From the IMG/VR virus record IMGVR_UViG_2563366805_000009: a stretch of 40,060 bases of DNA; one strand, given 5' to 3'. This DNA is from a virus. Its lineage: Duplodnaviria; Heunggongvirae; Uroviricota; Caudoviricetes. Position 1 is the stretch's first letter, and the number at the start of each line of letters is the position of its first letter. This document shows positions 4,233-29,916 of the stretch, in pieces. The notes under the pieces are model-generated. The model searched no databases. It worked only from the letters and a program-made list of their open reading frames with translations, and had not been told where the DNA came from. Both the position numbers and the translations under genes were made by a program.

Positions 4233-5086
4233 GCACCATCCTGAAATGGGCGGGAAATAAAACCGCCGTAATGTCCGAACTGAAAAAACATCTTCCTGCT
4301 GGTCCGCGACTAGTTGAACCTTTCGCGGGTTCCTGTGCTGTGATGATGGAGACGGATTATCCCTGCTATCTGGTTGCGGATATTAATCCTGATTTAATCA
4401 ACCTCTATAAAAAGGTTGCCGCTGATTGTGAATCGTTTATATCTCGCGCCAAAGTTTTATTTGAGATCGCAAACAGGGAGGTGGCTTATTACAACATAAG
4501 GCAGGAGTTTAATTACTCAACTGAAATTACTGATTTCATGAAAGCGGTATATTTCCTGTATCTCAATCGTCACGGTTACCGTGGGTTATGTCGCTATAAC
4601 AAGAGCGGGCATTTCAACATTCCCTACGGTAATTATAAAAATCCGTATTTCCCTGAAAAAGAAATTCGCGCTTTTGCAGAAAAAGCCCAGCGAGCAACGT
4701 TTATCTGCGCCAGCTTTGATGAAACGCTGGCGATGTTGAAGGCGGGGGATGTGGTGTATTGCGATCCGCCTTATGACGGTACGTTTTCCGGCTATCACGC
4801 TGACGGCTTTACTGAAGATGACCAGTATCACCTGGCATCCGTTCTTGAACATCGGTCATCAGAAGGACATCCGGTCATTGTTTCTAACAGTGACACATCC
4901 CTGATCCGTTCGCTGTATCGCAATTTTACTCACCACTATATCAAGGTAAAACGCAGCATCGGCGTAGCAGCTGGTGAGAGTAAATCAGCAACAGAAATCA
5001 TTGCTGTTTCCGGGCCGCGCTGCTGGGTGGGATTTGATTATTCGCGTGGCGTGGATAGTTCTGCCGTGTACGGAGTACGTGCATGA
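4229..5086 (+). CDS. dam: Dam-family DNA adenine-N6 methyltransferase (orphan, phage-encoded)
   Basis: N-terminal KWAGNK...EPFAGS AdoMet-binding region and catalytic DPPY motif ([10 protein letters not shown]); start chosen at internal ATG 4229, overlapping the previous stop. Confidence 0.85.
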
Positions 5087-7497
5087 GCCATGCCGATATG
5101 AGCAACTGCTGCGGCTTTAACGAGGCTGCCGCATCGTTCTCATGGAACAGCCCGAAAAAGGCCATTAACCCTTATCTGGACCCGGCGGAAGTTGCGCCGG
5201 TTTCTGCGCTTTCAAACCTGATCACTCTGTACGCTGCCGATAACGAGCAGGAACAACTGCGCCGCGAGGCACTGAGTGATCAGGTCTGGGAGCGTTATTT
5301 CTTTAATGAATCCCGTGATCCTGTCCAACGCGAAATAGAGCAGGATAAGCTCATTAGCCGGGCAAAGTTGGCGCATGAGCAGCAGCGTTTTAACCCGGAC
5401 ATGGTCATTCTGGCAGACGTCAGCGCCCAGCCCTCCCATATCAGCAAGCCGCTGATGCAACGTATTGAATACTTCAGCAGCTTGGGCAGGCCAAAGGCTT
5501 ATTCCCGCTATTTACGTGAGACGATTAAGCCATGTCTGGAACGACTGGAGCATGTACGCGACAGCCAGCTATCTGCATCTTTTCGTTTTATGGCAAGCCA
5601 TGTAGGGCTGGACGGCCTGCTGATTCTGCCTGAAATGAGTCAGGATCAGGTGAAACGCCTGTCTACCCTTGTCGCTGCGCATATGAGCATGTGCCTTGAT
5701 GCAGCTTGTGGTGATTTGTATGCCACCGATGACGTTAAGCCAGAAGAAATCCGCAAGACATGGGAAAAGGTGGCAGCGGAAACCCTGCGTCTGGATGTCA
5801 TCCCGCCTGCGTTTGAGCAACTCCGTCGGAAAAGAAACCGCCGTAAACCCGTGCCCTATGAACTCATTCCGGGTTCGCTGGCGCGTATGTTGTGCGCCGA
5901 CTGGTGGTACCGGAAATTATGGAAAATGCGTTGCGAATGGCGGGAAGAGCAGTTGCGTGCTGTCTGCCTGGTCAGCAAAAAAGCATCTCCCTATGTCAGC
6001 TATGAAGCCGTGATGCATAAACGTGAGCAGCGCCGCAAGTCACTGGAGTTTTTCCGTTCTCATGAACTGGTGAACGAAGAGGGCGACACGCTGGATATGG
6101 AAGACGTGGTAAACGCCAGCAGCAGCAACCCGGCGCACCGCCGCAATGAGATGATGGCCTGTGTTAAAGGTCTGGAGCTTATCGCGGAAATGCGCGGTGA
6201 CTGCGCCGTTTTCTACACCATTACCTGTCCGTCACGTTTCCATTCCACGCTCAATAACGGCAGACCAAACCCAACCTGGACAAATGCGACGGTAAGACAA
6301 AGCAGCGATTATCTGGTCGGCATGTTTGCTGCATTTCGTAAGGCGATGCACAAAGCCGGGTTGCGCTGGTATGGCGTGCGGGTGGCTGAGCCGCATCATG
6401 ACGGTACAGTTCACTGGCACCTGTTGTGTTTCATGCGCAAAAAAGACCGCCGCGCCATTACTGCATTGTTGCGTAAGTTTGCCATCCGTGAAGACCGCGA
6501 GGAACTGGGTAATAACACTGGTCCACGCTTTAAATCTGAGCTGATAAACCCGCGCAAAGGAACGCCGACAAGCTACATCGCGAAATACATCAGTAAGAAC
6601 ATTGACGGGCGTGGTCTGGCTGGCGAGATCAGCAAGGAAACGGGTAAATCCCTGCGTGATAACGCTGAATACGTTAATGCCTGGGCGTCTCTGCATCGTG
6701 TTCAGCAATTCCGCTTCTTTGGTATTCCGGGACGTCAGGCTTACCGTGAACTTCGCTTGCTGGCTGGTCAGGCGGCAAGGCAACAGGGTGACAAAAAAGC
6801 AGGTGCGCCGGTACTGGATAACCCGCGTCTTGATGCCATTCTGGCTGCTGCTGATGCTGGTTGTTTTGCCACCTACATCATGAAGCAGGGCGGCGTACTG
6901 GTTCCCCGCAAATATCACCTCATCAGAACCGCTTATGAAATCAACGAAGAGCCAACCGCCTATGGCGATCACGGTATTCGTATTTATGGCATCTGGTCAC
7001 CCATTGCAGAGGGCAAGATCTGCACTCATGCAGTGAAGTGGAAAATGGTTCGTAAGGCCGTTGACGTTCAGGAGGCGGCAGCCGACCAGGGCGCTTGCGC
7101 CCCTTGGACTCGTGGCAATAACTGTCCCCTTGCTGAAAATTTGAACCAACATGAGAAAGATGAATCAGCAGATGGGGATACCAGAACGGACATTACCTGC
7201 ATGGATGACAAGGAATTGCACGATTACCTGCACAGTATGAGCAAAAAAGAGCGCCGGGAACTGGCAGCAAGATTGCGCCTGGTTAAACCGAAACGGCGTA
7301 AAGACTACAAACAGCGAATTACAGAGTATCAGCGTCAGCAGCTCGTCTATGAACTGAAGTCCAGAGGATTTGATGGCAGCGAGAAAGAGGTCGATTTGCT
7401 CCTTTGCGGTGGCAGTATTCCGTCAGGAGCAGGCCTGCGTATCTTCTATCGGAACCAGCGTTTGCAGGAAGATGATAAGTGGCGGAACATGTATTAA
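5083..7497 (+). CDS. A: Replication initiation endonuclease (P2 gpA family, rolling-circle)
   Basis: 804-aa ORF; HWHLL (HxH) motif and conserved Tyr-containing regions typical of gpA-type Rep; position after dam/TraR genes. Confidence 0.85.
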
Positions 7498-7749: not shown

Positions 7750-8902
7750 AATAGCTGCGCGGAATAGTAGATCACTGAAAGGGAACTCAGCCCGGATTGT
7801 GCGATCTGATCAATCGCCAAACCAACCAAAATCACCAACCGGACTGAGCGATGCCGATCATAGTACCAATACCCCGTGGCGAACGACGCCTGATGCAGAA
7901 AGCTATTCATAAAACGCGTGATAAAAATCATGCCCGCAGACTCACGGCCATGCTGATGCTTCATCGGGGTGAACGGGTCAGCGATGTTGCCAGAACTCTC
8001 TGTTGTGCCCGTTCATCCGTTGGTCGCTGGATTAACTGGTTTACGCACTCAGGTATTGAAGGCCTGAAATCCTTACCCGCAGGGCGCTCCCGACGCTGGC
8101 CTTTTGAACATATCTGCACCCTGTTACGTGAGCTGATAAAGCATTCTCCCGGCGATTTTGGTTATCAACGTTCACGCTGGAGCACCGAATTACTGGCAAT
8201 AAAAATCAATGAGATAACCGGTTGCCAGTTACATGCAGGAACCGTTCGCCGCTGGTTGCCATCTGCGGGGCTTGTATGGCGCAGGGCCGCGCCAACTCTG
8301 CGTATCCGTGACCCACATAAAGATGAAAAGATGGCGGTAATCCACAAAGCGCTGGATGAATGCAGCGCAGAGCATCCGGTATTTTATGAAGATGAAGTGG
8401 ATATCCACCTTAATCCTAAAATCGGTGCGGACTGGCAGTTGCGCGGACAGCAGAAACGGGTAGTGACGCCGGGGCAGAACGAAAAATACTATCTGGCCGG
8501 CGCACTGCACAGTGGCACGGGTAAAGTCAGCTACGTGGGCGGCAACAGCAAAAGTTCAGCGCTGTTTATCGCTCTGCTGAAGCACCTGAAAGCCACTTAC
8601 CGGCGGGCGAAAACAATCACGCTGATCGTTGATAACTACATTATCCATAAAAGCCGCGAAACACAGCGCTGGTTGAAAGCAAATCCCAAGTTCAGGGTAA
8701 TTTACCAGCCGGTTTACTCGCCGTGGGTGAATCATGTGGAACGGCTATGGCAGGCACTTCATGACACGATAACCCGTAATCATCAGTGCCGCTCAATGTG
8801 GCAGTTACTGAAAAAGGTCCGCCATTTTATGGAAACCGCCAGCCCATTCCCCGGAGGAAAACATGGTCAGGCAAAAGTGTAGCGGTATTAGGCGCAGCTA
8901 TT
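7750..8902 (+). mobile_element. IS630-family insertion sequence (1153 bp) with TA target duplication in a CTAG target
   Basis: Terminal inverted repeats AATAGCTGCGC at 7750..7760 and 8892..8902 (reverse complement); TA at 7748..7749 and 8903..8904; flanks reconstitute C-TA-G; single 343-aa transposase ORF; length equals IS630 as recalled. Confidence 0.85.
7851..8882 (+). CDS. IS630-family (Tc1/mariner-like DDE) transposase
   Basis: 343-aa ORF with HTH N-terminus and DDE-type C-terminus (…VDNYIIHKS…), inside the TIR-bounded element. Confidence 0.9.
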   Translation: MPIIVPIPRGERRLMQKAIHKTRDKNHARRLTAMLMLHRGERVSDVARTLCCARSSVGRWINWFTHSGIEGLKSLPAGRSRRWPFEHICTLLRELIKHSPGDFGYQRSRWSTELLAIKINEITGCQLHAGTVRRWLPSAGLVWRRAAPTLRIRDPHKDEKMAVIHKALDECSAEHPVFYEDEVDIHLNPKIGADWQLRGQQKRVVTPGQNEKYYLAGALHSGTGKVSYVGGNSKSSALFIALLKHLKATYRRAKTITLIVDNYIIHKSRETQRWLKANPKFRVIYQPVYSPWVNHVERLWQALHDTITRNHQCRSMWQLLKKVRHFMETASPFPGGKHGQAKV

Positions 8903-9026
8903 TAGCTCTGCAGTGGGTTTCTGAATTGACTGATGAGTTGATGGCGAAAATTCGAAGCCATGAATACAGTAGGTCGATGGATGTAATCAGTTGAGCTTGT
9001 TTCGTTAGGACTTGATAAGGGAACCG

Positions 9027-9049
9027 AAAAGGGGCATTAAGCCCCTTTC
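9027..9049. terminator. Bidirectional Rho-independent terminator-like hairpin
   Basis: AAAAGGGGC-ATTAA-GCCCCTTT, T-rich on the plus side and A-run (T-run on minus) on the other; lies between the interrupted small gene and the convergent lipoprotein gene. Confidence 0.45.
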
Positions 9050-9061
9050 TCATAAGTTGAT

Positions 9062-9361
9062 TTAGTTGTTCCCCAAAGAGCCGGCCATGGCTGCATATTT
9101 AATTTCTTCGCTGGGTATTTCAGGATGTAGTTGAATTTGCCTGATGATATAGCCAGGAACTTCGTCACTCCACAGTTTCGCCGCGTCCTTACAGACCTTA
9201 TACGCGAAGTCTCTATTCTCAAAGGCATAGGATTTTCCGTATGCATATTGCTGACAGGCATGAACATAAGCTCCGAAGTCGCCGTCTTTATCTGGCAAAG
9301 CACATCCAGCTAAGGCTATGATGATTGCTACTAACGTAAAGGAGAAAGTTATACGTTTCAT
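9062..9361 (-). CDS. Small lipoprotein (99 aa), function unknown
   Basis: Signal peptide with lipobox (LAGC) at N-terminus; ORF track. Confidence 0.6.
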   Translation of the reverse strand: MKRITFSFTLVAIIIALAGCALPDKDGDFGAYVHACQQYAYGKSYAFENRDFAYKVCKDAAKLWSDEVPGYIIRQIQLHPEIPSEEIKYAAMAGSLGNN

Positions 9362-9469: not shown

Positions 9470-10276
9470 TTATTTAGAAAGGTACTTATCTCTAAGTTGA
9501 TTCAGTCTGTCAGCATCGCGTTCTGAAAACTCGGCGTCACCATAGATCGATTTCCCATCTGCGTCTTCAAGGCCAATGACTGTGACGGTAAATATAGCAT
9601 CAGCCGGAACTTTAAGTTTTCCCCAATCAGAGTATCTATTAGGGGCTAATTTCCAGTTGGCTTTCTCACCTGGTTCCAGACCTCCAGAAATTTTATAGTT
9701 GAAGACGTCAGAGAACCAAGGGACGCTTCTTCCTGGGCTGGCAATAACTCCTTTGAAGAATACTCTGGCAACCGCTTTGTCTGTTCCGTTTTCAACGCTA
9801 ATATCCAGAATTGGCTGATCATTGCCGTAATCCTCTTTCTGGAAATAAAAACGGGAACGTTCGACCTTGAAGGCTTTCATTTTTTCCGCAGCCTGTGTTG
9901 CAGAGGTTTGTTTGGCTTCCAGTTCTTTTATTTCTTGCAGAGCCTGTTCTTTCTCTCTCTTCTCACGCTCAAGGCGAATAGTTTGTGCGTAATTTATAAC
10001 CTCATCACCAGTTTTACCTTCCAACGCTGACTTAATTTTTGTTTCGTAGACGTCCCCAGAAGACGTTCCAGCCTGCATTAGCTCTCTCATGTTGATTTGG
10101 CTAAAGGCAACGACTTTAACTGCATCATCAAACTGAGCTTTTTTATCTGCAGGTAAGGACTCTCTTACTTTTTGAATGGACTCTTTCATCGACTGATCGC
10201 TTGATGCATCGATCTTCGGTTTGTCACAAGCAGTAAGCAGCAGAGCAAAAGCAATTACGCCAGTTAATTTCTTCAT
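9470..10276 (-). CDS. Lipoprotein (268 aa), function unknown
   Basis: Start moved to internal ATG (MKKLTGVIAFALLLTAC…, lipobox LTAC); charged coiled-coil-like middle region; ORF track 9470..10348. Confidence 0.6.
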   Translation of the reverse strand: MKKLTGVIAFALLLTACDKPKIDASSDQSMKESIQKVRESLPADKKAQFDDAVKVVAFSQINMRELMQAGTSSGDVYETKIKSALEGKTGDEVINYAQTIRLEREKREKEQALQEIKELEAKQTSATQAAEKMKAFKVERSRFYFQKEDYGNDQPILDISVENGTDKAVARVFFKGVIASPGRSVPWFSDVFNYKISGGLEPGEKANWKLAPNRYSDWGKLKVPADAIFTVTVIGLEDADGKSIYGDAEFSERDADRLNQLRDKYLSK

Positions 10277-10437
10277 ATCCCTATCCCAATCGTAAAAAAA
10301 CAAGGCTAATCCTAACAGGATTAGCGGGCATGACAAACTCATAGCCATATAGGTGTGCTGTATAAATTAGCGGGATGAGAAAGCCTGCACAGACCCTCAT
10401 GTTGAAACTTGATTTTAGCTCAAAAGAGCTGACACTA

Positions 10438-10618
10438 AATAACTGCGCGGAATAATGTTCCACTTTCGGTTAGCCCTTGGCCCTTGGCTCTTGCTGGGTA
10501 AGGCGTGGGGCCGTTTTCTTCGCCTGATCCTGCTGTATCTGGCCTACAGTATGTTGTCCTTACGCGACATGCCACATGTCAGTAAACGGCAGGTGTAGCA
10601 GTATTAGACGCAGCTATT
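10438..10618 (+). mobile_element. 181-bp MITE-like element with IS630-type terminal repeats, TA duplication in a CTAG target
   Basis: Left end AATAACTGCGCGGAATAAT matches the IS630 left end at 7750 (2 mismatches); right end GTGTAGCAGTATTAGACGCAGCTATT matches the IS right end (2 mismatches); TA at 10436..10437 and 10619..10620; flanking C…G; no ORF inside. Confidence 0.6.
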
Positions 10619-10805
10619 TAGTGTGTATTAAGCTGGCTCATATTTATGACTGGTTTCAAGGTTTGACCGATTTTCATGTCATGCATGTCTATGCTGCATG
10701 AGTTCGCATGATCGTTTGAGGATCGGTTTGGCTAAGACATGCCAGAACTGGCGGGCTTTTGCTCATGTCATGCAGGTGCATGAAAACTACTACATAAAGC
10801 GGGCA

Positions 10806-10824
10806 GGCGTGGCGGGGATACGAG
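10806..10824. other. Probable cos site (19-nt cohesive-end region) of the P2/186-family phage
   Basis: GGCGTGGCGGGGATACGAG resembles the recalled P2/186 cohesive end GGCG(A/T)GGCGGGGAAAGCA(C/T) over the first 13 nt; lies between the A-side accessory region and the portal gene, as in P2. Confidence 0.4.
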
Positions 10825-10983
10825 CGCGCGCTCGCTTAGTTTTGTAACACTCTGAGTAAGGTCGCTTTTTAGAAGCAAATGGCTTGCAAATTTTTTCAAC
10901 ATTGAGGTAATTTGTTAGGTATCGAAGGATAAATTAAGACAAGAGCAAATTCTTATTGCTTTTTGGATGACTAGGTGCAAGTT

Positions 10984-12090
10984 ATGACAGGTAGTGTCCC
11001 AGTAGTGCTTTCTGAGTCTGAGTTAAAGTCGATCTTGACCTTAACTGAACGTTTCACATGGAACGTTGCAAGGCCAATTATTGCGTCTTTAGGGCTGCCA
11101 ACAGGTAGGGGGCGTGAAGCAACAAACGAAAAAATACTAGAAAGCCTCATTGATCTTAAAAGTAAAGATAGGCAAAAGTTTGATGGCATTATGGCAAACG
11201 TAAATGACCTAATTTTGGGTCAGGTCGTTTATGGTGAAAAAGCAATATTTAGTTTGACTGTAGATAATAGTGTAATTAAAACACTAAATGACAGATTTAG
11301 TTTCCAATGGAATTTGATGAATCAACCATCATTATTGGTTGATTCGATCCTTGATGATGTCCAATTGCAAAATGCTGTAAAAAATCAACCTGAACTTGTT
11401 AATTATTCTATTCAAAACACCCAGTCAATACTTGTTTTTTCATCTGTCAGAGAATTAGTTGTAAGAGAAAAAATTCCCCCGTCAGCACTTGCGCAATACA
11501 AGCAGTTTGATGAAATTATTGCAAAGCGAAAAGAAAAGCGACAATGTTTTGATGTCTGTATATTAGACTCTGTTACTAATAAAATTCATGTTTTGGTAGA
11601 TACTAATGGTAATATTATTGGTGATAATGTTACTTTTGCAAAGAGTAACATTATTCGTGAATTGTATAATCATGTCGGTTATGAATTTAAATCATCGGAA
11701 AAAGATTTTTATCCGTTAATTGAGCCAATTTTCAAACAAAATTCATTGCCTTATTCAAAATTAAGCTATAAAGTCTTTGATTTGTCATTTTTGACGAATG
11801 AGGGGACTACGCATAAAGAAAAGAAAAATGTGGCCACTAAAGACTTACGTGATGATTTGTTTAATAAGGAAGGCATCAAAGCAGTAGGCAGTATTGGTTT
11901 GTATCGTATTGGAATTAGAGTTGATAGAAATAATCCAAAACTGCAATTAGCGGATAACGTAGAGCTTATCATTCCGGGAACACTCCGCAGGCATCTAGGA
12001 GGGAGTAGTTGCTCTCCTGTTAACTATGCTATATTAAGTAAATGTATATCCAAAGATGATTTCGAAACCCTCACAAAGCTGATATTATAA
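10984..12090 (+). CDS. Hypothetical protein, gene 1 of AT-rich three-gene operon (368 aa)
   Basis: ORF track 10975..12090 (GTG); ATG 10984 preferred, AGGTG RBS 6 nt upstream; no P-loop, no nucleotidyltransferase GS…DxD or RT YADD motif seen by eye; strongly AT-rich. Confidence 0.6.
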   Translation: MTGSVPVVLSESELKSILTLTERFTWNVARPIIASLGLPTGRGREATNEKILESLIDLKSKDRQKFDGIMANVNDLILGQVVYGEKAIFSLTVDNSVIKTLNDRFSFQWNLMNQPSLLVDSILDDVQLQNAVKNQPELVNYSIQNTQSILVFSSVRELVVREKIPPSALAQYKQFDEIIAKRKEKRQCFDVCILDSVTNKIHVLVDTNGNIIGDNVTFAKSNIIRELYNHVGYEFKSSEKDFYPLIEPIFKQNSLPYSKLSYKVFDLSFLTNEGTTHKEKKNVATKDLRDDLFNKEGIKAVGSIGLYRIGIRVDRNNPKLQLADNVELIIPGTLRRHLGGSSCSPVNYAILSKCISKDDFETLTKLIL

Positions 12091-12102
12091 TTGGAGTCAG
12101 CA

Positions 12103-12537
12103 ATGAAGGATGGTGATATGCCCAAGATCATCAAAGAAATGTGTGCAGAACGCCCTGAAATTGGGGCGTTAGCTTGCTATTTGTACGATGAAATCGAGGC
12201 AAGGGCTAAAAAATCATCAAATATAGCTTTAAGTTATAAGGATTTATTTAATATAGCTGGTGGTTATAATAAGGTTTTACAGCCAGAAACGTATGAGCAG
12301 GTTATCTATCCGGCCATACAAATTCTTTGTAGCCCAAAGGTTGATTTTTTAAAACTCAATTATTGGTTCATTGATGATTTTCATGACCCTGTAGAACTTG
12401 AAATAGAGGAAGTTATTGAGGCGGAAATCAGTCAATCTTTAGCAAACCCATTTACAGGGGAGCTTATGTATGACTATAAGTCATTCGTATTTCCTTTTTT
12501 TACATTAGATGAATCTAAATCAAAGGATATTATCTGA
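12103..12537 (+). CDS. Hypothetical acidic protein, gene 2 of operon (144 aa)
   Basis: ORF track 12091..12537 (TTG); ATG 12103 with GGAG 6 nt upstream; begins 12 nt after gene 1 stop. Confidence 0.55.
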   Translation: MKDGDMPKIIKEMCAERPEIGALACYLYDEIEARAKKSSNIALSYKDLFNIAGGYNKVLQPETYEQVIYPAIQILCSPKVDFLKLNYWFIDDFHDPVELEIEEVIEAEISQSLANPFTGELMYDYKSFVFPFFTLDESKSKDII

Positions 12538-13202
12538 TGTTAAAAATGTCTGCAGCAATGAGTTTGGCTGATATTGATAATGATATTTTTCTTCAGCGTA
12601 TTAATGCTTCTATTACTCGTGTTAGATTTGCACTTCAATCGTACGATAATTTCAAACAATTTGTCAGGATTGAACTTGATTCTGCTGTAAAGGAAATAGA
12701 AGAGAATTCAAATAAGTTAAACTTCGATTTAACAGAAGATCAGCTTACTTTAATTTTATTGGCCAATATCAAAAATAAAGATATGGGCATTGAAGCATTT
12801 CATGAAAATAATCAGCGCGGACATTGTGATATTACAATAAAACTAAAGGATTATATTTGGCATGGCGAAGCCAAAAAACATACATCTTCATATAGTTATT
12901 TATTTAAAGGGTATGCTCAACTCACTGAACGATATAGTACAGGGACCGTAGACAGCGCAAGTGGTGGATTGATTATCTATACTCGTAATAGAAAATGTAA
13001 TGAAATGATGAGCAACTGGAAGGCGCATTTAGATAAATTCGCACCAAGAATTCATGCCTGTAAATCTATAACGATTACTCCTTGTCAAAAAAATCCATTG
13101 GTTTTTTATAGCCAGCATGTTCACACAGTTACTCAACTGAATTATGAAGTTATTCATTACCCTGTAAATCTATATCATGAGCCTGTAGATCCGGATCTTT
13201 AA
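12537..13202 (+). CDS. Hypothetical protein with PD-(D/E)xK-like nuclease motif, gene 3 of operon (221 aa)
   Basis: Start overlaps gene 2 stop (TGATG); motif …AFHENNQRGHCDITIKLKDYIWHGEAKKH (E…D-x13-E-x-K). Confidence 0.55.
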   Translation: MLKMSAAMSLADIDNDIFLQRINASITRVRFALQSYDNFKQFVRIELDSAVKEIEENSNKLNFDLTEDQLTLILLANIKNKDMGIEAFHENNQRGHCDITIKLKDYIWHGEAKKHTSSYSYLFKGYAQLTERYSTGTVDSASGGLIIYTRNRKCNEMMSNWKAHLDKFAPRIHACKSITITPCQKNPLVFYSQHVHTVTQLNYEVIHYPVNLYHEPVDPDL

Positions 13203-13242
13203 GTTTTAATGCTCATGTCTTGGTGATTTTAAACTAAAGAAT

Positions 13243-13270
13243 AAAAGCCTGTTTGTACAGGCTTTTAAAT
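13243..13270. terminator. Bidirectional Rho-independent terminator between operon and portal gene
   Basis: Perfect 10-bp inverted repeat AAAAGCCTGT/ACAGGCTTTT with 4-nt loop, T-run after the stem on both strands. Confidence 0.5.
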
Positions 13271-13271
13271 A

Positions 13272-14309
13272 TCATTCAATACCTAAATTATAATCTTCAA
13301 AACGCATGACTTCTTCTCCAAGCCAGTCGTTCAATTCCTGAAGGCGCTTCTGCAGAGGTATCAACTCGTTGCGAACAAAGACGCGGCTGGCTTTCTCCAC
13401 ATCCCCAAAACCCCCAACATTACTCGGCATAATCCCCATCATTTGCGGCGGCACACGATGTGCTGCCATCATGTCATCCCGACTCACGTTCTTGATATTC
13501 AAAAACTCATCCTTCGCTGCGACCTCTGACAACGGGATAATCTGAAGTCCGTCCTTTTTGCCGTTAGGCGAGTACATAAACAGATTGCGGAAGTTGCCAG
13601 GGCCTTTGGCGCTTTTCATTGCGTTGCGGAGGTTGTTCACATCTTCCTGGTTCTGCGCGGCATCGGTCATATACATGATGAAGCCTGCATGGCTACCGTT
13701 AATGTAATACTTGCGGCGGAACAGCGTGGCGGACTCGTTGAGCAGGGCTGACGGAATGGCAGAAAGATAACCGGGCAGGCCGTAGATCTCCTGGTTGATG
13801 TCCGGTTCCATCAGATGAAAAATGCTGCCTTTCGTGAACTGATACGGCAGGGTTGTCATACCGTATTGCACAAACCAGTAGGTATCCAGGTCTAATCCGC
13901 GTCGGGTGTATTTTGCAAGCGCAGGCTCAATAGCGATAACTTCACCGAATCGGTTCGTGCGTTTCTCCAGGTAGGCGTTACCAAATACCAGATAGTCCTG
14001 CACAAAACGCGAAAAAGCCTGCTGGCTGAGCAGCGGATGAGGGATATAGGTACTGGTCAGAATGTTGCACTTTACTGCAATCGGGGAACTGTGATGCACG
14101 GCGGCGCGGAAGGTGCGCGCCAGTCCGTCAAAGCTGACGGGCGGCTCATACCAACGGTCCATCTGTACGCATTCCACATAATCCAGCAGTTCTCGGCGGT
14201 CCAGAACAGGAACGGGATCGCCGAAGCTGAATGCTTCGGCTGTAGTTTGACTTTTAAGCTGGATCTGTTTCGTCGCCGCAGCGCGGTTCTTCTTACTCTT
14301 TCCCATCAA
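13272..14309 (-). CDS. Q: Portal protein (P2 gpQ family)
   Basis: 345-aa ORF, size and position match P2 Q; overlaps the terminase gene start/stop. Confidence 0.9.
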   Translation of the reverse strand: MMGKSKKNRAAATKQIQLKSQTTAEAFSFGDPVPVLDRRELLDYVECVQMDRWYEPPVSFDGLARTFRAAVHHSSPIAVKCNILTSTYIPHPLLSQQAFSRFVQDYLVFGNAYLEKRTNRFGEVIAIEPALAKYTRRGLDLDTYWFVQYGMTTLPYQFTKGSIFHLMEPDINQEIYGLPGYLSAIPSALLNESATLFRRKYYINGSHAGFIMYMTDAAQNQEDVNNLRNAMKSAKGPGNFRNLFMYSPNGKKDGLQIIPLSEVAAKDEFLNIKNVSRDDMMAAHRVPPQMMGIMPSNVGGFGDVEKASRVFVRNELIPLQKRLQELNDWLGEEVMRFEDYNLGIE

Positions 14310-24518: not shown

Positions 24519-25897
24519 GCACAAAATTTTATACCCTGCTGACGGATATTGGCGCGGCGAAACTTGTCAGCGCCGCCGCGCTCGGTGTGCCGCTAAAAAT
24601 TACCCATATGGCGGTGGGCGATGGTGGCGGAACATTGCCGACGCCGGACGCAAAGCAGAGTGCACTGGTAAATGAGAAACGTCGGGCTGCGCTGAATATG
24701 CTCTATATCGACCCACAGAACAGCAGCCAGATTATTGCTGAACAGGTGATCCCTGAAAACGAGGGCGGTTGGTGGATACGTGAAGTGGGCCTGTTTGATG
24801 AGTCAGGGGCATTGATTGCCGTGGGCAACTGCCCGGAAAGCTATAAGCCGCAACTGGCTGAAGGCAGCGGGCGTACCCAGACCGTGCGCATGGTGCTGAT
24901 TACCAGCAGCACGGACAATATCACCCTGAAAATCGACCCTGCTGTAGTGCTGGCAACCCGCAAGTATGTGGATGACAAGGCACTGGAGCTGAAGGTGTAC
25001 GCGGATGATCAGATGGCAAAACATCTTGCCGCACCGGACCCGCATTCACAGTATGCAGCCAAAGAAAGTCCTACGTTTACCGGGACACCCAAAGCGCCAA
25101 CGCCAGCGACGGGGAATAACACCACGCAGGTTGCGACCACCGCATTTGTTCAGGCGGCACTGACGGCTCTTATTAATGATGCGCCAGCCACGCTGGACAC
25201 GCTGAAAGAAATAGCCGTAGCCATTAACAATGATCCGAAATTCAGTACCACCATTAACAATGCGCTGGCACTGAAAGCGCCGCTGTCGAGTCCGGCACTC
25301 ACCGGAACGCCAACCGCACCGACTGCGGCACAGTCGGTCAACAATACACAGATTGCCACCACGGCATTTGTGAAATCGGCGATTGCGGCAATGGTGGGTT
25401 CTGCACCTGCGGCACTGGATACACTGAACGAACTGGCGGCGGCGCTGGGGAATGACCCGAACTTTGCCACGACAATGCTTAATGCACTGGCAGGTAAACA
25501 ACCGCTGGACAATACGCTGACTCATTTGAGTGGAAAGGATGTTGCTAGTCTTCTCGCATACCTTGGTTTGGGAGAAGCGGCAAAACGGAATGTGGGAACA
25601 GGGGAAAATCAGATACCTGATATGTCATCATATGCATCAGGTTCAGGCTGGCGAAAAATGCCAGATGGTTCAATTGAACAGTGGGGACGAATTAGTTTTC
25701 CTGGTGAACACGGGCCTGTATCCGCCAATGTTTCATTCCCGATTCCATTTACACAGACACCTGGCATTGTAATTGTGTGCGATGGTGGTTTCGGGGGCGG
25801 GAATATGTGGGGGGCGACCAACTGGAGCACTACCGGCTTCATAGCTCACTGCAATTATGGTCTTGAAGGTGGTGCGTTTTTCGCTAAGGGCTGGTAA
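24515..25897 (+). CDS. H: Tail fibre protein H: constant N-terminal part fused to the currently expressed variable C-terminal segment (25565..25897)
   Basis: 460 aa; conserved N-terminus [17 protein letters not shown]…; repeats …TTAFV…; crossover site lies inside the gene at 25551..25576. Confidence 0.85.
25551..25576. other. Invertase crossover site (left, inside H): TTCTCGCATACC-TT-GGTTTGGGAGAA
   Basis: 26-bp imperfect dyad with central dinucleotide, resembling hix/gix/cix/pix sites (…AAACC-NN-GGTTT…); marks the left end of the mirror symmetry. Confidence 0.55.
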
Positions 25898-26340
25898 TGA
25901 TGAAATATCTGTACGTAAACAACCTGGCATATCCTTACGAACTTCAGTCTCTTTATGTTGAAAAAGGTGAATGGCCTGAAGAAAAAGGTGTTGATATAGA
26001 CGAAGTAATTTTCAGGGAATATTTCTATGACACACCACCAGAAGGAAAATACAGATGTGTTGGAGAAGATGGACTGCCTGCATGGGCAGATATTCCTCCA
26101 CCAACACGTGAAGAACAAATTGCATCAGCCGAAACTAAAAAGCAGCAATTGATTAATCAGGCCAACGATTATATGAACAGTAGACAATGGGTTGGTAAAG
26201 CGGCTATTGGTCGTCTGAAAGGTGAGGAACTGGCGCAATATAATTTGTGGCTGGATTATCTGGACGCACTGGAGCTGGTCGATACTTCCGGTGCACCAGA
26301 TATTGAATGGCCTACGCCTCCGGCAGTTCAGGCCAGATGA
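25897..26340 (+). CDS. Tail fibre assembly protein (Tfa) for the expressed fibre tip
   Basis: 147 aa directly after H stop (ATGATGAAA overlapping); size and C-terminal conservation typical of Tfa. Confidence 0.75.
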   Translation: MMKYLYVNNLAYPYELQSLYVEKGEWPEEKGVDIDEVIFREYFYDTPPEGKYRCVGEDGLPAWADIPPPTREEQIASAETKKQQLINQANDYMNSRQWVGKAAIGRLKGEELAQYNLWLDYLDALELVDTSGAPDIEWPTPPAVQAR

Positions 26341-26914
26341 CATCCGGCGCGGTGCTGGTATCTGTTGCCGTCACCGCGTCAATGTAATCCAGCACGGCGT
26401 TAAGGCGGGTTGTTTCTGCCTGCGTCAGCTTCCGTCCGGCCTGTAATTTCAGTTGAATCAGACTGATGGAGGCCATTGCAGTATCAATCAGCGACTGGCG
26501 CTGTGCTTCTGCTGCATCTACTGCTGCGCCGTGCTGTGCCTCAGTATCGGTCACCCATTTCTCACCATCCCATTTATCGTATGGCGTTAACGGGGCGATA
26601 GTGGTTGTATTTTCAGGGTAATCACCCGGAGTTGTGATTTCTTTGGCTTCTCCCGTTTCGGTGTTATAGACGATTTCACCGCGATGGTCTGGCACATATT
26701 CCCATGAGTTAAAATCTGCAGAACGGCAGATAGCATAACCAGCCTTATATGTGCCTGGTGAATCTAAACAGGAATATGCCGGGATACCAACACCAACGGC
26801 AAGATATTCATTTGAAGTGGAAATATATTCCCGTATTTCACCATCATAGTTATAGACGGTAATATTCCCTGCCTTCGTGGCAATAATCTCGCTATTTAAT
26901 ACAGCGTTATCCAT
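26312..26914 (-). CDS. Tail fibre assembly protein (Tfa) of the alternative fibre
   Basis: 200 aa, convergent with the other tfa; follows the alternative fibre tip on the minus strand. Confidence 0.75.
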   Translation of the reverse strand: MDNAVLNSEIIATKAGNITVYNYDGEIREYISTSNEYLAVGVGIPAYSCLDSPGTYKAGYAICRSADFNSWEYVPDHRGEIVYNTETGEAKEITTPGDYPENTTTIAPLTPYDKWDGEKWVTDTEAQHGAAVDAAEAQRQSLIDTAMASISLIQLKLQAGRKLTQAETTRLNAVLDYIDAVTATDTSTAPDVIWPELPEA

Positions 26915-27393
26915 TATGCAGCCCTCACAATATAATTAAAGGCAATGTTACGTGGGCGGTTCTCATTTGCGGTTGGGACAACGGCTGAAGCATTAAAATT
27001 CGCATACAGGGAGCGTTGATACCCGGATGCTGATGCACCACTTAATGCGGGAGCTTTTGACTCCGAAGCCGAAAAGGCCCCTGACACGTATCCTAATAAC
27101 CCTTGTGAATCGCCAATTGAACTGTAGCCAACCACCCCGGTAATGTTTCGGATAGCATCTCCTTGTGCTGAAAGCAGAGTTCGCCCACTATCCACTCCCT
27201 TTCCACCATCCCAGCCACGAATAAACTCACCGCGTAAATCAGGCAATTTTAACGTCGGGTAAGCCTTTGCCAGATTAGGGTAATCTTCAGCAGAAAAAGC
27301 CGCACCGTTGCATTTCAGCCAGCCTGTTGGCGGTGTGGCTGAAGGCCATGGAACAGGCACACCAACAGGCAGCGCAGAGCCTTCCCCTAAACC
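26914..27393 (-). CDS. Alternative tail-fibre C-terminal segment (promoterless; becomes fused to H after inversion)
   Basis: In frame from the crossover core (…GLGE-GSALPVGVPVPWP…); the ORF-track N-terminal extension (MHFSQPVGG…) is antisense of the copy-2 coding sequence and is not considered real. Confidence 0.6.
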   Translation of the reverse strand, partial: GLGEGSALPVGVPVPWPSATPPTGWLKCNGAAFSAEDYPNLAKAYPTLKLPDLRGEFIRGWDGGKGVDSGRTLLSAQGDAIRNITGVVGYSSIGDSQGLLGYVSGAFSASESKAPALSGASASGYQRSLYANFNASAVVPTANENRPRNIAFNYIVRAA

Positions 27394-27407
27394 AACGTTT
27401 AAGAAAA
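27382..27407. other. Invertase crossover site (centre 1): TTCCCCTAAACC-AA-CGTTTAAGAAAA
   Basis: Outer half identical to the pin-proximal site's outer half; inverted relative to the left site. Confidence 0.5.
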
Positions 27408-27437
27408 TGCAGAGGTGTGGAAAGGATGTTGCTAGTC

Positions 27438-27463
27438 TTCTCGCATACCTTGGTTTAGGGGAA
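27438..27463. other. Invertase crossover site (centre 2): TTCTCGCATACC-TT-GGTTTAGGGGAA
   Basis: Outer half identical to the H-internal site's outer half; direct repeat of the left site, 1887 bp downstream. Confidence 0.5.
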
Positions 27464-27931
27464 GGCTCTGCGCTGCCTGTTGGTGTGCCTGTTCCATGGC
27501 CTTCAGCCACACCGCCAACAGGCTGGCTGAAATGCAACGGTGCGGCTTTTTCTGCTGAAGATTACCCTAATCTGGCAAAGGCTTACCCGACGTTAAAATT
27601 GCCTGATTTACGCGGTGAGTTTATTCGTGGCTGGGATGGTGGAAAGGGAGTGGATAGTGGGCGAACTCTGCTTTCAGCACAAGGAGATGCTATCCGAAAC
27701 ATTACCGGGGTGGTTGGCTACAGTTCAATTGGCGATTCACAAGGGTTATTAGGATACGTGTCAGGGGCCTTTTCGGCTTCGGAGTCAAAAGCTCCCGCAT
27801 TAAGTGGTGCATCAGCATCCGGGTATCAACGCTCCCTGTATGCGAATTTTAATGCTTCAGCCGTTGTCCCAACCGCAAATGAGAACCGCCCACGTAACAT
27901 TGCCTTTAATTATATTGTGAGGGCTGCATAA
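27452..27931 (+). CDS. Second copy of alternative tail-fibre C-terminal segment, preceded by a 31-bp fragment of the H constant region
   Basis: Identical protein to the 26914..27393 segment; ORF-track start 27308 is an antisense artefact. Confidence 0.55.
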   Translation, partial: GLGEGSALPVGVPVPWPSATPPTGWLKCNGAAFSAEDYPNLAKAYPTLKLPDLRGEFIRGWDGGKGVDSGRTLLSAQGDAIRNITGVVGYSSIGDSQGLLGYVSGAFSASESKAPALSGASASGYQRSLYANFNASAVVPTANENRPRNIAFNYIVRAA

Positions 27932-28533
27932 TGGATAACGCTGTATTAAATAGCGAGATTATTGCCACGAAGGCAGGGAATATTACCGTCTATAACTATG
28001 ATGGTGAAATACGGGAATATATTTCCACTTCAAATGAATATCTTGCCGTTGGTGTTGGTATCCCGGCATATTCCTGTTTAGATTCACCAGGCACATATAA
28101 GGCTGGTTATGCTATCTGCCGTTCTGCAGATTTTAACTCATGGGAATATGTGCCAGACCATCGCGGTGAAATCGTCTATAACACCGAAACGGGAGAAGCC
28201 AAAGAAATCACAACTCCGGGTGATTACCCTGAAAATACAACCACTATCGCCCCGTTAACGCCATACGATAAATGGGATGGTGAGAAATGGGTGACCGATA
28301 CTGAGGCACAGCACGGCGCAGCAGTAGATGCAGCAGAAGCACAGCGCCAGTCGCTGATTGATACTGCAATGGCCTCCATCAGTCTGATTCAACTGAAATT
28401 ACAGGCCGGACGGAAGCTGACGCAGGCAGAAACAACCCGCCTTAACGCCGTGCTGGATTACATTGACGCGGTGACGGCAACAGATACCAGCACCGCGCCG
28501 GATGTCATCTGGCCTGAACTGCCGGAGGCGTAG
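27931..28533 (+). CDS. Tail fibre assembly protein, duplicate copy
   Basis: Identical 200-aa product to 26312..26914. Confidence 0.7.
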   Translation: MDNAVLNSEIIATKAGNITVYNYDGEIREYISTSNEYLAVGVGIPAYSCLDSPGTYKAGYAICRSADFNSWEYVPDHRGEIVYNTETGEAKEITTPGDYPENTTTIAPLTPYDKWDGEKWVTDTEAQHGAAVDAAEAQRQSLIDTAMASISLIQLKLQAGRKLTQAETTRLNAVLDYIDAVTATDTSTAPDVIWPELPEA

Positions 28534-28948
28534 GCCATTCAATATCTGGTGCACCGGAAGTATCGACCAGCTCCAGTGCGTCCAGATAATCCAGCCACAA
28601 ATTATATTGCGCCAGTTCCTCACCTTTCAGACGACCAATAGCCGCTTTACCAACCCATTGTCTACTGTTCATATAATCGTTGGCCTGATTAATCAATTGC
28701 TGCTTTTTAGTTTCGGCTGATGCAATTTGTTCTTCACGTGTTGGTGGAGGAATATCTGCCCATGCAGGCAGTCCATCTTCTCCAACACATCTGTATTTTC
28801 CTTCTGGTGGTGTGTCATAGAAATATTCCCTGAAAATTACTTCGTCTATATCAACACCTTTTTCTTCAGGCCATTCACCTTTTTCAACATAAAGAGACTG
28901 AAGTTCGTAAGGATATGCCAGGTTGTTTACGTACAGATATTTCATCAT
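28505..28948 (-). CDS. Tail fibre assembly protein, duplicate copy
   Basis: Identical 147-aa product to 25897..26340. Confidence 0.7.
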   Translation of the reverse strand: MMKYLYVNNLAYPYELQSLYVEKGEWPEEKGVDIDEVIFREYFYDTPPEGKYRCVGEDGLPAWADIPPPTREEQIASAETKKQQLINQANDYMNSRQWVGKAAIGRLKGEELAQYNLWLDYLDALELVDTSGAPDIEWPTPPAVQAR

Positions 28949-29280
28949 TACCAGCCCTTAGCGAAAAACGCACCACCTTCAAGACCATAATTGCAGTGAG
29001 CTATGAAGCCGGTAGTGCTCCAGTTGGTCGCCCCCCACATATTCCCGCCCCCGAAACCACCATCGCACACAATTACAATGCCAGGTGTCTGTGTAAATGG
29101 AATCGGGAATGAAACATTGGCGGATACAGGCCCGTGTTCACCAGGAAAACTAATTCGTCCCCACTGTTCAATTGAACCATCTGGCATTTTTCGCCAGCCT
29201 GAACCTGATGCATATGATGACATATCAGGTATCTGATTTTCCCCTGTTCCCACATTCCGTTTTGCCGCTTCTCCCAAACC
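28948..29280 (-). CDS. Second copy of the H variable C-terminal segment (promoterless, inverted)
   Basis: Identical to H residues [11 protein letters not shown]…AKGW; in frame to the crossover core at 29281..29282. Confidence 0.55.
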
Positions 29281-29294
29281 AACGTTTAAGAAAA
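29269..29294. other. Invertase crossover site (right, pin-proximal): TTCTCCCAAACC-AA-CGTTTAAGAAAA
   Basis: Inverted relative to the left site; lies about 55 bp upstream of the invertase gene, as gix/cix/pix sites do. Confidence 0.55.
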
Positions 29295-29349
29295 TGCAGA
29301 GGTAACAGCTAACTGGCATCATCTCCGGTTTTTATTCAGGGGGATGATC

Positions 29350-29916
29350 ATGCTTATTGGCTATGTACGCGTGTCAACAAATGACCAGAACACCGATTTG
29401 CAACGTAATGCACTGAACTGCGCGGGATGTGAGCGGATTTTTGAGGACAAAATCAGTGGCACTAAGTCCGACAGACCGGGGCTGAAAAAACTACTCAGGA
29501 CACTATCGGCAGGAGACACGCTGGTTGTCTGGAAGCTGGACAGGTTGGGGCGCAGTATGCGGCATCTTGTTACGCTGATAGAAGAGTTGCGCCAGCGTGG
29601 TGTGAATTTCAGAAGCCTGACTGACAGTATTGATACCAGTACCCCAATGGGCCGTTTCTTTTTTCATGTCATGGGTGCCCTGGCTGAAATGGAACGCGAA
29701 CTGATAGTTGAACGTACCAGGGCAGGGCTGGCTGCAGCTCGTGCCAAAGGCAGAGTAGGTGGACGCCGTCCTAAGTTGACCACCGAACAGTGGGCACAGA
29801 TTGGGCGTTTACTCGAGGCCGGAGAATCAAGACAGCGTATTGCACTGATTTTTGATGTAGGCGTTTCTACCATTTATAGAAAATTTCCGGCAAATAAGAT
29901 CAATGAATCCCCCTGA
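29350..29916 (+). CDS. pin: Serine-recombinase DNA invertase (Hin/Gin/Cin/Pin family)
   Basis: N-terminus MLIGYVRVSTNDQNTDLQRNAL with catalytic Ser; …VVWKLDRLGRSM… and C-terminal HTH; near-identical to the recalled e14 Pin / P1 Cin N-terminus. Start at second ATG (AGGGGG RBS). Confidence 0.9.
   Translation: MLIGYVRVSTNDQNTDLQRNALNCAGCERIFEDKISGTKSDRPGLKKLLRTLSAGDTLVVWKLDRLGRSMRHLVTLIEELRQRGVNFRSLTDSIDTSTPMGRFFFHVMGALAEMERELIVERTRAGLAAARAKGRVGGRRPKLTTEQWAQIGRLLEAGESRQRIALIFDVGVSTIYRKFPANKINESP

Follow-up and report, generated by a model that had tools for sequence, protein, structure and literature searches.

Several established systems offer parallels to the locus we describe here, a three-gene operon (g1, g2 and g3) in a 40,060-nucleotide stretch of tailed-phage DNA (IMG/VR record IMGVR_UViG_2563366805_000009), the whole of which we refer to as the window. 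PrrC is a latent nuclease held by EcoprrI, a Type I restriction-modification (R-M) enzyme, and RexA/RexB and the nuclease effectors of Avs/NLR proteins are likewise established parallels. Lambda RexAB is among the closest known systems, g1 possibly being of the fold class to which RexA belongs, and for g3 the closest named effectors are the PD-(D/E)xK modules HamA of Hachiman, McrC, NucC, Can2/Card1, Shedu and Avs/NLR. RexA, a prophage exclusion sensor, has been assigned to the fold class of RdgC, itself a ring-shaped DNA binder that modulates RecA (PMC11077077). As for genomic setting, the P2 hotspot has been defined as the interval from gpA to gpQ with cos inside (Rousset et al. 2022, PMC9122126), and more than one third of the systems cloned from it were active (PMC9122126).

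Here, we propose with moderate confidence that the operon is lysogenic-conversion cargo encoding a three-component anti-phage (conflict) system, in which g1 would serve as sensor, g2 as adaptor or inhibitor and g3 as nuclease effector. This reading builds on the gene anatomy, the catalytic residues of g3, the co-inheritance and coupling of the genes, their hotspot location and the recurrence of g2-g3 with immune partners, together with the folds predicted for g1 and g3.

A three-gene cassette between cos and the portal gene of a P2/186-like prophage

The window is a P2/186-like Escherichia coli prophage, and its operon is 100% identical to that of E. coli ECONIH4, MS 115-1 and others; the ECONIH4 prophage adjoins rcdA/ybjJ. 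An original prediction made from the sequence alone had described three co-oriented open reading frames (ORFs) of 368, 144 and 221 amino acids (aa), and we reproduced their coordinates and strand: g1 (10984-12090, +), read from an ATG and encoding a basic protein (isoelectric point (pI) 8.5); g2 (12103-12537, +), encoding an acidic one (pI 4.4); and g3 (12537-13202, +). All three starts are the RefSeq starts in the identical ECONIH4 prophage and agree with homolog N-termini, among which the g1 N-terminus MTGSVP is kept. Both junctions also read as had been described, the g1 TAA being followed by 12 nt with a GGAG inside and then the g2 ATG, and the g2 TGA overlapping the g3 ATG as TGATG. The trio is syntenic from 100% down to ~20-30% identity across phyla, which argues that these ORFs are real genes.

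The operon is flanked by the elements that delimit the hotspot. Within the cos region (10797-10832, +), the core GGCGTGGCGGGG at 10806-10817 matches once in the window, against zero matches expected by chance, which places g1-g2-g3 between cos and the portal gene Q (13272-14309, −), whose stop lies at 13272. Q, annotated as 'phage portal protein', and the gpA replication endonuclease gene (5083-7497, +) are the right and left hotspot boundaries, both named from the 100% identical ECONIH4 prophage. Between cos and g1, a block conserved in an alignment of cassette-bearing loci contains a putative operon promoter, TTGCAA-N16-GGTAAT (10884-10911, +), which fits 8 of 12 consensus positions and falls under the scanner threshold. 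Downstream, a palindromic hairpin (13242-13267, assigned to no strand) with a perfect 11-bp stem, a 4-nt loop and T-runs on both sides separates the convergent g3 and Q stops. The hairpin had been taken for the operon's own terminator; it is indeed present, but the terminator scanner calls it on the minus strand, that of Q, so that we read it as a probable bidirectional terminator, which the convergent Q/P transcript uses too.

The expected AT-richness was borne out, with a guanine-plus-cytosine (GC) fraction of 0.342 in the operon vs. 0.513 in Q, 0.571 in P, 0.545 in the late genes and 0.528 in gpA (34% vs. 51-57% GC). We found the operon in 21 of 5426 complete E. coli genomes (~0.4%), nine copies at a minimum of 99% identity and 12 at ~85%, with every E. 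coli copy annotated as three hypothetical proteins. Its composition, its rarity and its occurrence as one block in elements of P2-like, P4-like and lambdoid type agree with the prediction of an acquired module.

The location, in contrast, is not atypical as had been supposed. The operon lies between gpA and Q in a slot that varies between related phages, the published hotspot spans cos, and related Peduoviridae carry other cargo beside the portal gene (L080, 162-860; L081, 2180-3922; L082, 1916-3899). This cargo comprises a DUF4145 gene in the cos-Q slot of phage Cartapus (L080), an AIPR abortive infection (Abi) gene in the same slot of a Klebsiella P2-like phage, and a pair formed by a hypothetical and a reverse-transcriptase gene beside Q in the third relative. 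Two of the three relatives examined thus hold defence-associated genes there, marking the cos-Q slot as a recurrent cargo site.

Comparison with described defence systems

Searches against described systems returned no identity for the operon. No PADLOC-DB v2.0.0 family matched g1, g2 or g3 at E ≤ 1, and therefore no system model of that database; Pfam and NCBIfam gave no family match; and among PHROGs the three proteins matched only the function-unknown families 12777, 11490 and 9664. Two Pfam matches fell below threshold and were discarded, one of g1 to DUF7628 (E 0.045), its sole Pfam match at E ≤ 1, and one of the N-terminus of g3 to Rep3_C WH2 (E 0.0027). Sequence searches of the PDB with homolog profiles gave nothing meaningful, and the operon had no megablast counterpart among 50,697 phage records. 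Literature searches on the WP accessions, and on EF-Tu/FtsZ decoy or Type ISP guard systems, returned no earlier description, and the three proteins are not listed in the DefensePredictor supplements. In a 2026 preprint on P2/P4 hotspots, the unknown loci that were tested were P4 loci only.

The prediction of an undescribed system accordingly stands in that nothing matched in PADLOC, Pfam or NCBIfam, but the locus is not wholly unrecorded, because its proteins (WP_000148121, WP_001324710 and WP_016239485) form a hotspot arrangement in Table S5A of Rousset 2022. The same three are absent from the cloned and tested systems of Table S2 of that study.

The described system most readily mistaken for this one is Rst_3HP ('hp+hp+hp', pFR109), likewise three genes without predicted domains from the same P2 gpA-gpQ hotspot, which is validated and protects against P1 (Rousset et al. 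2022, PMC9122126). We rejected an identity between the two: all-vs.-all BLASTP gave E > 0.3, and g1-g3 hidden Markov models (HMMs) scored ~0-2 bits against Hp1-3. The Rst_3HP proteins have 333/359/228 aa vs. 368/144/221 aa in the cassette, and Rst_3HP lies on the gpA side of cos while the cassette lies on the Q side; the cloned pFR109 sequence carries the same cos variant as the window. The operon is also distinct from Type II R-M systems in that g1-g3 contain no methyltransferase domain; the nearest methyltransferase is a phage Dam-like gene 5' of gpA, with no other nearby.

g3 is a predicted BamHI-like nuclease

The nuclease effector suspected in the original prediction is most plausibly g3. 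In its AlphaFold2 (AF2) model (predicted local distance difference test score (pLDDT) 90.5), the order of secondary-structure elements is that of the PD-(D/E)xK core, alpha-beta-beta-beta-alpha-beta, with D98 starting one strand and E111-A-K113 lying in the next. Neither these three charged residues nor E67, Q128 and R132 vary among 29 close homologs or among 59 distant ones at 26-40% identity, and the best structural matches of the model are Type IIP restriction enzymes and McrC. The modelled protein is thus of restriction-endonuclease fold with an invariant D...ExK motif, and a nuclease activity is predicted from it.

An exhaustive HMM search with a g3 profile returned 568 clusters at 50% identity, 445 of them at E ≤ 1e-10. 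Stand-alone proteins of 200-230 aa make up the majority, and several clusters form the C-terminal domain of NACHT or NB-ARC STAND proteins with HEAT repeats. The PADLOC candidate PDC-S54, an unvalidated single-gene candidate, matches 16 of the 59 g3-family members as well as an NB-ARC fusion, but not the g3 of the window; the part of it that matches g3 relatives is its C-terminal part (profile positions ~296-371).

A g2 domain proposed to link the nuclease to a wide range of partners across phyla

We then searched genomes with a degenerate DNA pattern over both g3 catalytic motifs, which returned 48 loci, 45 of them encoding a g3 homolog. A full g1-g2-g3 triad was present at 26 of these 45 non-enterobacterial loci, from Rhizobiales, Rhodobacterales, Sphingomonadales, Burkholderiaceae, Arthrobacter, Acidimicrobiales and Pseudanabaena, i.e., from Alpha- and Betaproteobacteria, Actinobacteria and Cyanobacteria. 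The triad is a widespread, unnamed family of probable anti-phage systems, with the E. coli cassette as one member. In the Pseudanabaena locus (L073), the g3 homolog is in two fragments, 8923-9252 and 10415-10707, ~1.2 kb apart, which suggests that an insertion inactivated this nuclease gene.

At other loci, the position of g1 and g2 is taken by a single protein with a g2-like C-terminus directly 5' of the g3 homolog. At six of the 45 loci, the partner of the g2 domain in the fusion is a Type ISP or IIG-like R-M enzyme, and at one locus each it is Type I HsdR (with HsdS upstream), a copy of EF-Tu, a copy of FtsZ, a copy of ribosomal protein S3 or a FeeM-like acyltransferase; at the remaining eight, the stored sequence breaks off in the region 5' of the g3 homolog. 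Of these copies, that of EF-Tu is near-canonical, with intact motifs and an estimated identity of ~74% to E. coli TufA. Both the EF-Tu and the FtsZ copies adjoin integrase, ImmA or exonuclease genes and stand outside str or dcw operons.

The R-M fusions recall PrrC-EcoprrI, in that relatives of the cassette join the g2 domain to a Type ISP enzyme or a Type I HsdR with the nuclease next to it, and they look as though a restriction enzyme had been wired to an effector of the second line. The likeness is one of arrangement: PrrC, an anticodon nuclease of the ABC-ATPase type, is not related to g3, and in the E. coli cassette an RdgC-like protein stands where PrrC-EcoprrI has the R-M enzyme.

The g2 protein itself has no Pfam or PDB relatives and is fast-evolving. 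Homology was seen between g2 and the C-terminal domain of a protein with a TIR domain (BLASTP E 4e-7), and this TIR protein is coupled to the most distant g3 homolog found by word search. In nearly all loci across phyla, the ORF carrying the g2 domain overlaps g3 by 1-4 nt. This pattern of fusion and coupling suggests that g2 is the element physically linking a variable partner to the nuclease, and its acidity and co-translation with g3 fit an inhibitor-adaptor.

The same features are antitoxin-like, as g2 is small, acidic and translationally coupled to a predicted nuclease through its 1-4 nt overlap, and the cassette moves among mobile elements. We therefore considered a toxin-antitoxin addiction module that would stabilize the prophage or the cassette, with g3 as toxin, g2 as antitoxin and g1 as regulator. 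Such a module would hardly account for the repeated fusion of the antitoxin-like domain to large immune or restriction proteins, for the fusion of the nuclease to NLR-like STAND proteins, or for a slot used by Abi genes, and we regard it as improbable, while noting that toxin-antitoxin and defence roles are not mutually exclusive.

g1 resembles RdgC in predicted structure

The AF2 model of g1 (pLDDT 86) matches, among viral models, phage RdgC or 'recombination-associated' proteins with probability 1.0, and E. coli RdgC and phage RdgC-like proteins are its best structural matches. At the level of sequence, Pfam, NCBIfam and profiles run against PDB sequences gave no link between g1 and RdgC or RexA. 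Comparison of predicted models, which had been suggested as a check on the original prediction, thus gave an RdgC-like g1 alongside the restriction-endonuclease-like g3. Unlike RdgC, g1 carries an additional four-helix region at its N-terminus and is fixed in an operon with a nuclease gene. Across phyla, only R23, G43, D206, E279, R289 and G297 are invariant in g1 and no catalytic motif is kept, so that this basic protein with few invariant residues suits a binding scaffold better than an enzyme. The parallel with RexAB does not extend to a RexB-like multi-pass membrane effector, since no 19-residue window in g1, g2 or g3 exceeds a Kyte-Doolittle hydropathy of 1.1.

The fold of g1 could also point to a module of benefit to the phage, serving recombination or DNA metabolism in P2 lytic growth or degrading host or competitor DNA: phage proteins with this fold are annotated as recombination-associated or exonuclease, and RdgC modulates RecA (PMC11077077). 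A function of that kind sits poorly with a presence in only ~0.4% of E. coli genomes, with sister phages that carry unrelated cargo in its place, with an orientation convergent to the late operon and the composition of a moron, and with triads in chromosomal non-phage contexts and in a satellite. We consider it very unlikely.

The cassette moves among P2-like, P4-like and lambdoid elements

Across 24 P2-like loci, the gene order is invariant, with gpA followed by cos, 160-215 bp, g1-g2-g3 and then Q and P on the opposite strand; cos is retained in every cassette-bearing P2-like locus at this distance 5' of g1. Along this series, identity falls to 40-62% for g1, 31-52% for g2 and 53-68% for g3. 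In Providencia (L002, 6443-8666), the trio lies in a P4-like satellite, flanked by an integrase and a Toprim primase at one end and by Psu and Delta at the opposite end, and P2-like and P4-like satellite cassettes share 40-53% identity. This is notable, as exchange of defence genes between P2 and P4 is reported in a 2026 preprint to be almost absent.

Five further loci (L011-L013 and L022-L023) are in lambdoid prophages, where the trio is found between the O/P replication genes and DinI/antiterminator Q, and these copies carry a fragment of 65-85 aa of the P2 portal gene (about 6690-7075). In the P2-like setting, homology to cassette-less relatives restarts only 26-34 nt inside the 3' end of Q (window 13272-13305). 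Together, the divergence of the Q 3' end and the portal fragment in lambdoid prophages form a recombination scar indicative of P2-to-lambdoid transfer. At L022 (8571-10433), the cassette adjoins a 620-aa S-type pyocin/colicin-like gene (Pyocin_S + Cytotoxic) and a tail-fibre-like gene.

A constant insertion point, a Q 3' end replaced along with the cassette and a Q fragment carried into lambdoid phages might instead indicate a selfish cassette of the homing-endonuclease type, aimed at the cos-Q junction of P2 relatives that lack it. Ordinary recombination at hotspot edges explains the Q scar equally well, and three genes, a wide non-P2 distribution and a nuclease fused to STAND, TIR or R-M partners are hardly expected of a homing element; we give this alternative very little credence.

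A proposed sensor-adaptor-nuclease mechanism

From the observations above, we infer binding between g2 and g3 and between g1 and g2, the latency of the nuclease, its trigger and substrate, and an anti-phage phenotype, and propose the following sequence of events. The g3 protein would be a latent DNase-type effector of the PD-(D/E)xK class; g2, co-translated with it, would bind g3 and keep it inactive; and g1 would be a DNA-binding sensor of RdgC/RexA fold. The cue for g1 may be foreign or replicating phage DNA, or a phage protein acting on such DNA. On this cue the restraint exerted by g2 would be lifted and g3 would cut DNA, so that the infection is aborted or the invader is destroyed directly.

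The same components could alternatively make up a restriction-like direct attack, in which g1 would clamp incoming DNA (free ends, unmodified or modified) and recruit g3 via g2 while the cell survives, a logic resembling Type IV or McrBC systems without the NTPase. The structural matches of g3 to Type IIP enzymes and McrC, the fold that g1 shares with a ring-shaped DNA binder and the many relatives in which the g2 domain is fused to a complete Type ISP or Type I restriction enzyme would all suit such a scheme. On the other side, the operon has neither a methyltransferase nor an NTPase, and g2-g3 also occur with EF-Tu, FtsZ, S3, TIR and NACHT-HEAT proteins, which are not DNA binders; for these partners a generic triggered effector fits better than DNA-targeted recruitment. 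Direct attack thus seems to us unlikely. Overall, the proposed arrangement of sensor, adaptor and nuclease agrees better with the partner spectrum and the hotspot data than does any of the four alternatives weighed here.

The partner spectrum also invites a broader and more tentative idea, namely that the g2 domain and g3 together form a portable 'tripwire' that makes any attached protein a guarded bait. The baits would be the RdgC-like DNA binder, Type I and Type ISP restriction enzymes and the extra, near-canonical copies of EF-Tu, FtsZ and S3, and an attack on the bait by an inhibitor, modifier or protease of a phage would set off the nuclease; the most common three-gene form would then be the E. 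coli P2 cassette. We hold this generalization to be less likely than not. Rare FtsZ-type domains in conflict systems have been treated as effectors (Kaur et al. 2020), and by that view the EF-Tu, FtsZ and S3 partners could be dominant-negative effectors rather than baits.

Other features of the hotspot and the window

The gpA-to-cos side of the hotspot in the window holds further genes. An IS630-family transposase ORF of 343 aa (7851-8882, +) is the counterpart of the 'DDE_3/HTH' entry in one of the arrangements of Table S5A; the ECONIH4 prophage, identical in other respects, is without it and has IS1 inside the DUF6694 lipoprotein gene instead. Two lipoprotein genes also lie on this side, one of 99 aa (9062-9361, −) and one of 292 aa from the DUF6694 family (9470-10348, −), and could be more lysogenic-conversion or exclusion cargo. 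In Serratia ureilytica (L004, 4262-5900), the gpA-to-cos side carries, beside the cassette, a PRTase-CE and NADAR gene pair that is probably another defence system.

Elsewhere in the window, the ORF list shows at 25897-29916 a mirror-symmetric series of 147/200/207 aa followed on the opposite strand by 207/200/147 aa and then by a 190-aa ORF. Its layout resembles that of an invertible host-range segment for tail fibres and their assembly, together with a site-specific invertase, comparable to the Mu G or P1 C segments.

Discussion

The E. coli copy of the cassette is a small, clonable operon with its native promoter region, and as such a practical entry point into the family. E. coli MS 115-1, a well-studied strain and the model for CBASS/NucC, carries the identical cassette, so that a convenient native host is at hand. 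The cos-Q side of the P2 hotspot emerges from this comparison as a defence slot.

If validated, the system would constitute a new cross-phylum defence family whose core is an undescribed adaptor domain and a BamHI-like nuclease. The surprising part is its modularity, with members spread across phyla and partners that include housekeeping proteins and restriction enzymes. The tripwire idea, if true, would give the integrated decoys of plant NLRs a counterpart in bacteria and would generalize the principle of PrrC-EcoprrI. If the system is validated, the list of partners offers a testable route to the long-standing question of how phage attack on essential machinery and on first-line restriction is sensed, through guards or decoys.

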